From Candidatus Wildermuthbacteria bacterium (GTDB taxonomy: Bacteria; Patescibacteriota; Minisyncoccia; Minisyncoccales; PEYH01): DNA of 56,710 nucleotides. The stretch covers positions 1-56,710 of the forward strand of contig JBBIKX010000002.1 of NCBI GenBank assembly GCA_037445205.1, in the 5' to 3' direction. Position 1 is the stretch's first letter. Every line of letters begins with the position of its first letter. Position numbers and translations under genes: made by a program. This document shows, piece after piece, positions 53,881 to 56,710 of this stretch. The notes beneath the pieces are model-generated. The model ran no database searches. It was given only the letters and a program-made list of their open reading frames with translations, and was not told the origin of the DNA.

Positions 53881-56710
53881 TTATTTATCTACTCTTTTTG
53901 CGGACAATCGTATTCTGTCGTTGCCAAGAAATGACTCTTTTAGAATATCATATCCTTCTCTTGGAATTTCAGAACAATATTTAATAGCATTAATTTTAGT
54001 ATGCAAAAGAATTGATTTCTGGCTTCTGATTATAATCTTTTTTATGGCTTCTGGCGATGCGATATACAGATCAACTTTGTCTTTGGGCGTATATCTGGCT
54101 CCCTTCCTCATATCCTGTATCAGCCGAATGATATCCCTTAAAATTCCCTCTTCTATGAGTTGAGGAGTCAGTTTTGTATTTAGCTCAAAATTTTTGCCAA
54201 AGGTAATTTTTTTAACGTTAATCTCTTCTTTGATAAGATCCAGCAGCTCTTTATTTTTTGCAAGTTCACGGTGAGTAATTTTTAATTCTTCCAGGGGCTG
54301 GCGCACTTTTATTTTATTTTGCGCTCTTTGAGCCAAAACTTTGCCAACGATTTCTCTTGCCTTGGCCATTTTTTCTTCAAGGCTTCTGTCAATCAGCCCT
54401 TTATTGACCCTTGGCCAATTTTCCAAATGAACGCTTTTGACCTTTGATTTTGCGTCAGAGATTCCCTTTGGGCGCAAAATATAGCTTTGATTTTGAAGAT
54501 TTTGATAAATTGCTTCGCTTAAAAACGGAATAAAAGGGGCGGTCAGCTTGATTATATCTGAAAGCAGCCGGAATAAAACAAGCGAAGCCTTTTCTAATTC
54601 TCCTTTGCTTTGTGGTTGTTGAAATCTTTTTCGTGAGCGTCTTATATACCACAAAGAAAAATCGTCTATAATAAAATCTTCTATCAGCCGGGCGGCAGAA
54701 GTAATGTCGTAGTTCTCTAATTTCTTTGTTGTCTCTGATACCAAATTATTAAATCTTGATAAAATCCATTTATCTAAAATATGAATTTTTGCTTGTTTGA
54801 ACGATTTTTCATTTTGTGCTTCATGTTTTCCGTTTTTGGCGTATGTTTCGTAAAAAACACAGCAGTTCCAAAGAGTAAGTATAAGTTTTCTAAAACTTTC
54901 TTCCACCTCTTTTTGAGAGAATATCTTCGATTCCCCGGGCTGATTAATAATGTAAAAATGCCATCTTAGGGCGTCTGACCCGCTCTTATCAATTATCTGC
55001 CAAGGATTAACGACATTGCCTTTTGATTTAGACATTTTTTCTCCTTTTTCATCTAAAATGTGACCCAAAGAAATAACGTTTTTATAGGGCGATTTAAATC
55101 CCAAAAGGGTGGAAATTGCCAGGAGCGTGTAAAACCATCCTCTTGTCTGGTCAATTGCTTCAGAAATATAATCGGCCGGAAATAATTCCGGGGGTTTCAA
55201 GCTTTGCATTTTACATTCTGCATTTTGCGTTTGAGCGCAAGCGAACGGGAAGTGAGCTTGCGCGAACGGCATTGCGCCCGAATCAAACCAGCAGTCAATA
55301 ACTTCCGGAACTCTTTTCATTTTTCCGTTGCATTTGGAACAGAAAAATTCAACTTCGTCAATATAGGGCCGGTGGAAATCAAGCTCGCCAGCCAAATTGT
55401 AGCCAAACTGTTTATATTCCCACTGCCGGTATTGTCCTGTGCCAAAATCCCATGCTTTTTGGGGGCTCATTAATTCCTCTTTTGCCCAGCCGAAAGACAA
55501 ACTTTCAAGCATCAAAAGGGGCAGTTTGTGGCTGACGATCAAAATGTTTTTATCCCCGTGATTTGTTTCAATCTCTTTTATGAAATCCAAGACCCTTTGT
55601 TTGACCTGAAAATAGTTCTCTCCTTTTGGAAATCCTTGCTGATATTTTTTGAAAAGTATTTCCTCTTTTTTCAGCTTGTTTGCGGGGTCAAAAAAATTAT
55701 CGCCCTCTTTTATGGATTTAGCGTTTAGTTCCCCCGTATCCAATTCTCTCAAGCGTGCATCGTAAAACGGTTTGATGCCCAGTGCTTCCCCGACAATCTC
55801 AGCTGTCTGTTTTGTTCTTAAAATGTCTGAAGAAAAAATAATGTCTATTTCTTCTTTTTTGAGAGAGCGAACCGCTTTTTCAACCTCTTTTTCTCCTTTT
55901 TTTGTAAGCGGAACTTGTTTTGCTTCTGGGAAAGAGGAATAAAAATTTTGCGCATTGGACACTGCTTCTCCGTGCCTTAAAAGAAAATATTTGTTAGTGC
56001 TGAATTTTTGTTTTTTCAAATCCTCTCTTGAGCCAATGACCTCTTGATGGCCGCATTGACCGCAATTCCATATTGGCAGCGGAGTGCCCCAATATCTTTC
56101 CCGCGAAAGCGCCCAATCTTTCAAATCGCTCAGCCACTCGCCAAATCTCCCGTCTTTTATATGTCCGGGGATCCAATTTATTTGCTGATTGTTTTCAATC
56201 AATTCTTTTTTAATCTGCGTTGTTTTTATATACCAGCTCAATTTTGCGTAATACAAAAGCGGGGTTTTACATCTCCAACAGAATGGGTAATCGTGTTCAT
56301 AATCTTTAACTCCAAATATTTTATTTTCGTTTTTAAGATGTTCTATAATCAGAGGGTCGGCTTTTTTTACAAACATTCCCGTCCATTTTCTAACTTCCGG
56401 CCCAAATTTTCCCTCTCCGTCAACGGTTAATAAAACTGGGAACTCCGGTTCTTTTTGCATTTTGCATTTTGCATTTTGCATTTTTATTAATTCCATATCT
56501 TCTTCTCCGAAGGCAGGAGCAATATGGACAAGGCCGGTTCCTTCTTGAGTGCTAACAAATTCTCCGGATAAAATCTTATAAATATTTTTAAATTCTTCTG
56601 GGAAAGAAAGCGTTTTTTCGTCAAAAATCGGCGCATAAGGCAGGCCGACCAATTTTTTTCCCTTTATCTTCCAAACTACCTCAAAATCATTGCCAAAAAT
56701 TTCTTTTCTT
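53881..56710 (-). CDS. ileS: Isoleucyl-tRNA synthetase; N-terminus lies beyond the window end; carries a nested histidine-phosphatase domain and two repeat inserts
   Basis: The reading frame stays open upstream of the track's TTG start (…[25 protein letters not shown]). Motifs include [32 protein letters not shown] and the CxxC pairs. Confidence 0.95.
   Translation of the reverse strand, partial: [942 protein letters not shown]
55201..55239 (-). repeat. Degenerate AAAATGC-type repeat in-frame in ileS (encodes [13 protein letters not shown])
   Basis: Plus strand reads gctttgcattttacattctgcattttgcgtttgagcgca, which resembles the T-rich arm at 35847-35896. Confidence 0.8.
55408..55998 (-). other. 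Histidine phosphatase superfamily (PGAM-like, RHG) domain inserted in-frame in ileS
   Basis: [13 protein letters not shown] (RHG), [29 protein letters not shown] (second Arg), RELDTGEL (Glu) and NILIVSHK (second His) occur in the canonical order over about 195 aa. Confidence 0.75.
56452..56484 (-). repeat. (AAAATGC)n heptamer repeat in-frame in ileS (encodes [11 protein letters not shown])
   Basis: Plus strand reads tttttgcattttgcattttgcattttgcatttt. Confidence 0.9.

Follow-up and report, generated by a model that had tools for sequence, protein, structure and literature searches.

Aminoacyl-tRNA synthetases (aaRS) are among the best-studied of all enzymes, and the known accessory domains that they carry serve editing and tRNA binding in bacteria, and signalling as well in eukaryotes. 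Here we describe ileS, a partial isoleucyl-tRNA synthetase (IleRS) gene at the right end of a 56,710-nucleotide stretch of DNA from an uncultivated, ultra-small member of the Patescibacteria, a Candidatus Wildermuthbacteria bacterium (contig JBBIKX010000002.1, positions 1 to 56,710; this whole stretch is referred to as the window), within whose predicted product is nested a complete, and apparently active, histidine phosphatase domain.

The host part of the protein has the same fold and domain order as the type-2 IleRS enzymes, which are eukaryote-like and mupirocin-resistant and are represented by those of T. thermophilus (1ILE) and P. megaterium (IleRS2, 8C8V). The likeness extends to the HIGH, KMSKS and CP1 editing motifs, two Cys4 zinc sites including that of the CP3 hairpin, and the Anticodon_1 and DUF5915 domains. 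The difference lies at the tip of CP3, where the reference enzymes have 5–8 residues and the window protein has about 208, and also in two extra short loops rich in K, Q and N.

The best match to the insert, both by sequence (E 1.2e-12) and by fold, is PspA (iPSP1), the metal-independent phosphoserine phosphatase of Hydrogenobacter thermophilus (4IJ5, 4IJ6), which has the same catalytic R-H, R, E and H residues and a similar size of about 200 amino acids; however, the two are only 23–24% identical, and PspA is free-standing and dimeric. PhoE (YhfR), a broad-specificity phosphatase of Geobacillus stearothermophilus (1EBB, 1H2E), is 28–29% identical to the insert and alike in its DERLREI..G...GK and P..GE motifs, although PhoE stands alone and the insert has a characteristic S.WPE....PLT segment after the RHG motif. 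Among NCBIfam profiles, that of CobC, the alpha-ribazole-5'-phosphate phosphatase (TIGR03162; 6NRU, 6E4B), ranks first or second for the insert, and the substrate of CobC is a nucleotide-like phosphomonoester; no cobalamin genes are seen in any of the neighborhoods examined.

A precedent for joining a branch-1 histidine phosphatase to a nucleic-acid enzyme is offered by the RNase H/acid phosphatase proteins of the Rv2228c type (PRK07238), the phosphatase half of which is matched by the insert (E ~1e-21; 75 bits against a cut-off of 326), but there the fusion is terminal and with another partner, whereas the window's phosphatase is nested in IleRS. There is also a curated IleRS model with an additional enzyme domain, NF040702 (isoleucine--tRNA ligase, N-acetyltransferase domain-containing), where the addition is GNAT and not a phosphatase, and against which the window protein scores 180 bits with a cut-off of 1999. 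Extra catalytic domains in IleRS, and histidine phosphatases fused to other enzymes, are already known. The preliminary description of this DNA, made from the sequence alone, knew of no described aaRS with an embedded histidine phosphatase, and full-text literature searches likewise found no description of one in IleRS or in any other aaRS.

The synthetase host and the site of the insert

The ileS gene is transcribed leftwards and 942 of its codons are visible, in a frame that is open as far as the window end at 56710; about 265 N-terminal codons, those of HIGH among them, fall beyond that end. The parts of the gene and of its insert are listed here in the order of translation.

53881..>56710, minus strand: ileS, type-2 isoleucyl-tRNA synthetase, partial coding sequence (reading of the open reading frame; Pfam and NCBIfam profiles)
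56506..56541, minus strand: CP1 editing-domain motif (direct reading of the sequence)
56269..56280, minus strand: CWRC, second Cys pair of the CP-core zinc site (C402 and C405 invariant in alignment A1)
56053..56064, minus strand: CGQC, first Cys pair of the CP3 zinc hairpin (C474 and C477 invariant in A1)
55993..56016, minus strand: N-side linker KKQKFSTN, resembling the N-terminus of free phosphatases (MKFKNKYF...)
55384..56007, minus strand: whole insert of about 208 amino acids, comprising N-linker, histidine phosphatase domain and C-linker (gap in phmmer alignments with 1ILE and 8C9D)
55477..55986, minus strand: His_Phos_1 domain (PF00300), residues 242-411 of the partial protein (Pfam E 4.5e-31)
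55972..55977, minus strand: predicted catalytic Arg245-His246 of the RHG motif (R and H each in 119/119 homologues)
55816..55818, minus strand: predicted second catalytic Arg, R298, in SSDILRT (119/119 homologues)
55744..55746, minus strand: predicted catalytic acid, Glu322, in RLRE (Glu in 87/119 and Asp in 32/119, always acidic)
55528..55530, minus strand: predicted second catalytic His, H394, in IVSHK (119/119 homologues)
55381..55422, minus strand: C-side linker, family consensus E[YF]K.FPYN..GEL
55330..55341, minus strand: CSKC, second Cys pair of the CP3 zinc hairpin, just downstream of the insert (C715 and C718 invariant in A1)
55024..55038, minus strand: KMSKS catalytic loop of the synthetic site (K807, M808, S809, K810 and S811 invariant)
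53881-53883, minus strand: TAA stop codon of ileS

An in-frame insertion in ileS had been placed at 55408-55998 in the preliminary description. The insertion stands, and these positions lie inside the somewhat longer segment given above; what has to be added is that ileS is read from the minus strand and is cut off by the window end. The plus-strand translation of 55408-55998 is riddled with stops and the insert is readable on the minus strand only, where all of the ileS and phosphatase peptides quoted earlier are present.

By its profiles and motifs, the host is predicted to be an IleRS of intact type-2 kind. In the partial protein Pfam recognizes tRNA-synt_1 in two stretches that flank His_Phos_1, followed by a C-terminus of type-2 architecture, with Anticodon_1 and DUF5915 and without the bacterial zinc-binding domain. 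The top NCBIfam model is ileS, with the type-2 MupA and MupB models next. The fragment scores 542.7 bits with TIGR00392 (ileS), under the cut-off of 621.4, as it lacks the N-terminal part; P0121, the full-length relative nearest to it (1207 amino acids, 82% identical), passes with 908.2 bits. Across 117 full-length homologues P46, G47, H49 and H50 of the HIGH region, which lies outside the window, are at least 90% conserved, G321, G323, V325, H326, A328, P329, F331 and G332 of the editing motif are invariant, and the Thr-rich TTTPWT editing peptide and the editing His are conserved. A model of one such homologue (P0122; predicted local distance difference test [pLDDT] score 89.5, predicted template modelling [pTM] score 0.84) compares with the type-2 structures 8C8V and 8C8U at template modelling (TM) scores of 0.80–0.83 (0.80 for 8C8V, target-normalised) and with the type-1 structures 8C9E and 1QU2 at 0.77; the target-normalised TM score with 1ILE is 0.88.

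The insert is located at the tip of the CP3 zinc hairpin, between the CGQC and CSKC Cys pairs, in agreement with the zinc-knuckle position proposed for it earlier. Its N-side flank corresponds to residues 399-479 of T. thermophilus IleRS and its C-side flank to residues 488-553, and therefore about 208 residues stand in place of a loop of about 8. Alignment with P. megaterium IleRS2 gives the same picture, and the CGQC motif aligns with the CP3 zinc motif region of the Thermus enzyme. CP3 is a peripheral subdomain whose topology varies among IleRS, with a zinc motif in the Thermus enzyme (PMC7191050). The short spacing that the preliminary description gave for ordinary IleRS at this point is indeed found, as a junction alignment places no segment equivalent to the insert in insert-less IleRS either from within the candidate phyla radiation (CPR) or from outside it. 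The C-side linker consensus is kept among insert-bearing IleRS, and in the P0122 model this linker is ordered, with 10-residue blocks over 681-700 averaging pLDDT 92–94. The composition of the insert is host-like, as had been noted (GC content 0.39, compared to 0.377 in the flanks), and its codon usage is at the edge of the range of flank chunks.

The phosphatase domain, its spread and its free relatives

By profile and by fold the insert belongs to the branch-1 histidine phosphatase superfamily, though to no characterized subfamily of it; it resembles PhoE, PspA and CobC and has the full catalytic set. With PF00300 the whole protein scores 108.5 bits and the insert by itself 112.8 bits, with a cut-off of 21.7, and an AlphaFold model of the insert (pLDDT 94.5, pTM 0.91) agrees in fold. 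Both the family and the ordered catalytic signature put forward in the preliminary description are borne out. Foldseek comparison of this model gave PspA (4IJ6; TM 0.83) and PhoE (1H2E; TM 0.77), then CobC and the riboflavin-pathway phosphatase 9MMH, with all four in the range 0.74–0.83. In the full-length P0122 model the phosphatase domain has pLDDT 86–97 and ordered linkers. The RHG motif, R245-H246-G247, lies at 55969-55977 with its Gly present in 115 of the 119 homologues, and R298, E322 and H394 follow in canonical order and align with the catalytic positions of PspA and PhoE; the RHG His is the phospho-acceptor nucleophile in this superfamily.

Assignment to individual subfamilies was tried and rejected. 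Scores were 85–98 bits for dPGM (NF038349, dPGM_arch; cut-off 225), 78–100 bits for CobC (TIGR03162; cut-off 162.9), 63–83 bits for PspA (NF045917; cut-off 350) and 35–40 bits for SixA (TIGR00249; cut-off 74.5), the last with a match confined to the N-terminal third. With regard to dPGM, the insert family has [ILV]-[ND]-x-G after E322 and x-x-P after H394, and not what we take to be the substrate-binding residues of that enzyme, Arg90 and Tyr92 after the catalytic Glu and Asn186 after the second His (E. coli numbering).

The fusion is widespread in Patescibacteria, not rare, with hundreds of relatives sharing it, and is conserved over a large part of the CPR. When the 942 residues of the window protein served as the query, the best 120 clusters were 51–82% identical to it, mostly full-length at about 1,100–1,240 residues, and all of them contain PF00133 together with PF00300; their source names are Patescibacteria, Parcubacteria, Paceibacterota and Nealsonbacteria. 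In a scan of 80 loci on metagenome contigs from many datasets, a single uninterrupted open reading frame crosses both junctions at 46. The survey of relatives suggested at the outset thus recovers the same fusion in both sets. NCBI records list several of the fusion proteins simply as 'class I tRNA ligase family protein', and the fusion is abundant in public databases under such generic names. We also note that the fusion occurs under off-clade labels, namely Humimicrobiaceae (Actinomycetota), Saccharibacteria, Sedimentisphaerales and Nanoarchaeota, on contigs L050 (292 kb) and L001 and in proteins P0007 and P0015. The neighborhood in L050 and L001 is of CPR type despite these labels, which are probably binning or labelling errors and not true spread outside Patescibacteria.

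At the remaining 34 of the 80 metagenome loci the phosphatase is a free gene of the same subfamily, encoding about 185–209 residues. Where flanks are available the order is argS-phosphatase-ileS on one strand, with an insert-less ileS (941–966 amino acids), and the gaps separating the phosphatase gene from argS and ileS have a median of 4 nucleotides on each side, with several 4-nucleotide overlaps. At the insert-bearing loci ileS comes directly after argS with no free phosphatase gene between. The nested domain is the orthologue of the free gene of about 195 codons that lies between argS and ileS in sister lineages, a gene that the insert-bearing lineage no longer has. The N-side linker stretch QKFSTNKYF is like the free protein's N-terminus, MKFKNKYF, and we infer that the whole upstream open reading frame was relocated about 1.45 kb into ileS, with the synthetase still working.

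The closest relative of the window, locus L107, has the order rplT-rpmI-infC-smpB, argS, ileS with its phosphatase, genes for 142- and 547-residue proteins, a class II aaRS, M16, AI-2E and a methylase, and from ileS downstream this order is that of the window, gene for gene. In the window the gene directly downstream of ileS (53428..53856, minus strand) encodes a basic protein of 142 amino acids for which there is no Pfam match, and shares 11 nucleotides with the start of the next gene. A reading frame of the same length occupies this position in L026 and L107, and other lineages have one of 95–140 codons together with recO.

The history of the insert was examined with neighbor-joining trees, the IleRS tree being made without the insert columns and with 30 insert-bearing sequences. 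Twenty-nine of these fall in one clade (bootstrap 68), which is nested among IleRS whose phosphatase gene is free. The other, L002, groups with an insert-less IleRS (bootstrap 97), and monophyly of all 30 was recovered in 0/100 replicates. Two independent insertions at the same site would account for this placement; they were set aside in favor of transfer of the cassette by recombination, because the linker motifs and CxxC of L002 are those of the insert clade and its outer flanks are like those of its tree neighbor, L081. The L002 gene, at 4795-8256 in a Parcubacteria metagenome-assembled genome (JAGLUP010000003.1), is mosaic-looking, and the slot between its argS and ileS holds a trpC-like indole-3-glycerol phosphate synthase gene in place of the phosphatase. 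A tree of the phosphatase only (197 columns) is unresolved, with free and nested copies mixed; with respect to the outgroup, copies of the window's type belong to a single subfamily, whether free, nested or fused to ArgRS or YrdC. A recent horizontal graft has no support, since the insert is like its flanks in composition and the insert-bearing IleRS are an old clade, 51–82% identical to the window's protein.

The free phosphatases are basic, at +12 per 100 amino acids with a pI of 10.1, and equal the SmpB proteins of these loci in this respect. The corresponding charges are +6.7 for the nested phosphatases, +1.0 for the window's copy and +3.4 for the IleRS host; a lower charge would be expected of nested copies if affinity for RNA is now provided by the synthetase.

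Fusions beyond the window were surveyed by an exhaustive profile-free search with the insert sequence. Besides free proteins and IleRS fusions, this search gave an arginyl-tRNA synthetase (ArgRS) with the phosphatase at its C-terminus (P0276), which occurs on two assemblies with related synteny, and YrdC/TsaC-phosphatase fusions, which form four clusters, one of them on five contigs, in gene contexts unrelated to argS or ileS. Other IleRS of the Patescibacteria type contain two to four phosphatase copies in one protein, in tandem or elsewhere (P0254, P0256, P0293, P0295, P0311, P0317, P0328, P0353 and P0375). The copies are 27–33% identical to the window's insert and occupy at least three different sites, after the second Cys pair, after WFDSG, and between KMSKS and the anticodon domain. 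Every extra copy whose N-terminus is present has the RHG motif or, in two copies, an RHA variant. The P0353 protein combines phosphatase, GNAT and IS200-like Y1 transposase (Y1_Tnp) domains. Among the YrdC/TsaC proteins of Patescibacteria (PF01300; P0389-P0505) the commonest fusion partner is the MGMT-type DNA-binding domain PF01035, and others are TruB, 2H/cyclic phosphodiesterase (PF07823/PF13563), alkylpurine glycosylase (PF02245), GNAT, NUDIX and His_Phos_1.

Possible roles of the nested phosphatase

Our preferred interpretation, which we hold tentatively and with confidence somewhat short of even, is that the nested domain was once an operon partner and is now joined covalently to IleRS, as a third and autonomous catalytic module that is a functional partner of the charging machinery. 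The free upstream reading frame would have moved into the CP3 hairpin with IleRS function retained, and the domain would be an autonomous phosphomonoesterase acting through a phosphohistidine intermediate, in a pocket of its own that shares no site with aminoacylation, and held on IleRS by conserved and ordered linkers. It would partner the charging machinery in trans where the gene is free in the operon and in cis where it is nested, and tethering might, more speculatively, provide 1:1 expression and delivery to the tRNA-bound enzyme. We favor a partnership because phosphatase insertion recurs at several IleRS sites, because the fusion partners IleRS, ArgRS and YrdC/TsaC all bind tRNA and form adenylates, because the free gene is tightly packed against ileS over deep divergence, and because free copies are SmpB-like in basicity and nested copies much less basic.

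Two more specific proposals can be made within this framework. The phosphatase may be a genuine third catalytic site of the Patescibacteria charging machinery, taking off a phosphoryl group that prevents tRNA charging or goes along with it, although this we regard as doubtful; candidates would be a 2'/3'-phosphate on a tRNA 3' end that is damaged or has been modified by a toxin, or else a by-product, either a nucleotide or pyrophosphate. Lineages would then differ in whether the phosphatase serves IleRS/ArgRS as a trans-acting accessory factor or forms a built-in domain. Of the possible substrates we favor a translation-linked phosphomonoester, either a nucleotide-type compound or an RNA- or tRNA-end phosphate, although taken overall it is still rather unlikely; the pyrophosphate or AMP by-product of adenylation, taken up below, is a less likely alternative. 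If the domain is coupled to charging, it would represent an undescribed phosphate-handling step in the translation of minimal-genome organisms, and a third site of the kind just outlined would be an aaRS-coupled activity of a sort not described in any organism. As the system is a single polypeptide, it is directly testable with a single point mutant.

Several observations weigh against the partnership. The nearest characterized relatives, PspA, PhoE, CobC and the riboflavin-pathway HFP, act on small metabolites outside translation, no histidine phosphatase with RNA ends as its substrate came up in the literature search, and we know of no obvious phosphomonoester intermediate in aminoacylation. 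Gene adjacency alone could explain the ArgRS and IleRS fusions, YrdC in this phylum is joined to many small domains of unrelated kinds, and the conserved neighborhood also includes unrelated genes such as recO and that of the M16 peptidase, because of which synteny by itself is weak evidence. The charge comparison is also weak, since small CPR proteins tend to be basic anyway; 23% of other small reading frames equal or exceed the phosphatase mean in basicity, in a control set from which the motif filter did not remove every phosphatase gene.

The main rival, which we consider a real possibility while giving it well under even weight, is that the domain is an ordinary housekeeping phosphatase of a small molecule (phosphoserine, a sugar phosphate or a cofactor precursor) whose chemistry is unrelated to tRNA charging, and which came to be nested through the adjacency of the genes and the tolerance of the CP3 hairpin for insertions, being kept since the fusion guarantees expression in a streamlined genome. 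The metabolite phosphatases closest to it in sequence and fold are as this would predict, as are the PhoE-like P.GE motif and cap region, and fusion in these genomes is promiscuous, YrdC in Patescibacteria being joined to at least seven unrelated small domains and one IleRS to both GNAT and Y1_Tnp. The multi-copy IleRS hold divergent paralogues, which suggests several substrates, and CP3 is variable and peripheral (PMC7191050). It accounts less readily for the recurrence of the insertion at three or more IleRS sites, for partners that are all tRNA-binding, adenylate-forming enzymes, for the persistent translational packing of the free gene against ileS, for an RNA-binding-like charge that relaxes once the domain is nested, or for linkers that are conserved and ordered. 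Should the domain prove uncoupled from charging, it would still be a clean natural case of a whole neighboring gene relocated into a permissive hairpin of an essential enzyme, and as such useful for domain-insertion engineering.

A distinctly unlikely role is removal of products, in which the domain hydrolyses the pyrophosphate or AMP of adenylation and so pulls amino-acid activation forward at the enzyme. In its favor, IleRS, ArgRS and YrdC/TsaC all turn ATP into an acyl-adenylate and pyrophosphate, and a 1:1 tether is sensible for a stoichiometric by-product; to our knowledge, however, branch-1 histidine phosphatases are not known to be pyrophosphatases, the other partners of YrdC (TruB, MGMT and so on) are off-theme, and one simple substrate would hardly call for two to four divergent copies. 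The histidine phosphatase superfamily also includes protein phosphatases, and a regulator resembling SixA, PGAM5 or Sts-1, with a target in IleRS itself or in a partner phosphorylated by a HipA-like kinase toxin, is hinted at by the weak SixA profile match (40 bits). We think this very unlikely, as that match misses the 74.5-bit cut-off, the fold and cap are like those of small-molecule enzymes and unlike the open protein phosphatases, and no kinase partner is seen in any neighborhood. Since histidine phosphatases such as PspA, PhoE and dPGM commonly dimerise, and tandem copies could form pseudo-dimers, a non-catalytic structural, dimerising or docking element can be envisaged, but it is highly improbable given that, in 119 sequences that are 51–82% identical to the window's protein, all five catalytic positions are kept, with the acid always Glu or Asp, and that they are conserved in the free genes too. 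That the locus is an artefact, either a chimeric assembly or a frameshifted gene pair, is hardly credible. The window does end inside ileS, on an incomplete contig; yet one open frame passes through both junctions and the gene order is shared with the closest relative, and misassembly, which the preliminary description had wished to see excluded, is set aside because the same junctions recur in dozens of independent assemblies, including the best 120 clusters and the 46 contigs from many datasets.

Other genes and repeats in the window

The general content of the window fits an anaerobic CPR genome. The synthetase genes in these 56.7 kb are those for LeuRS, MetRS, HisRS, a class II enzyme (50467..51792) and the partial ileS. 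Other features are as follows.

14628..16139: ComEC
16816..18921: anaerobic ribonucleotide reductase NrdD
27821-27907: single tRNA-Leu(CAA)
35897..37168: NiFe-hydrogenase large-subunit-like open reading frame

An open reading frame of 249 codons (43550..44299, minus strand) has a weak match to IS200-like Y1 transposases (E 4.9e-06), and adjoins a TatD gene and a 271-codon reading frame without a Pfam match.

Tandem arrays with a 7-base period, reading TTTTGNA on the plus strand and TNCAAAA on the coding strand, are present in frame inside three class Ia synthetase genes, and the pattern has 15 matches where 1.4 are expected. The arrays are located as follows.

56453-56484 and 55203-55232: in ileS
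39083-39146, 39353-39383, 39834-39857, 40105-40169, 40397-40420, 40691-40716 and 40815-40844: in the LeuRS open reading frame (38834..41569)
45772-45828: in the MetRS open reading frame (45489..46943)
35845-35896: intergenic

The arrays within genes encode peptides rich in K, Q and N, for example KSQILNPKQIQNSKLK. Both of the ileS tracts are in loops that are absent from Thermus IleRS, and peptides resembling Q-N-x-K-x-K-x-Q are found at the same two IleRS positions in many homologues.

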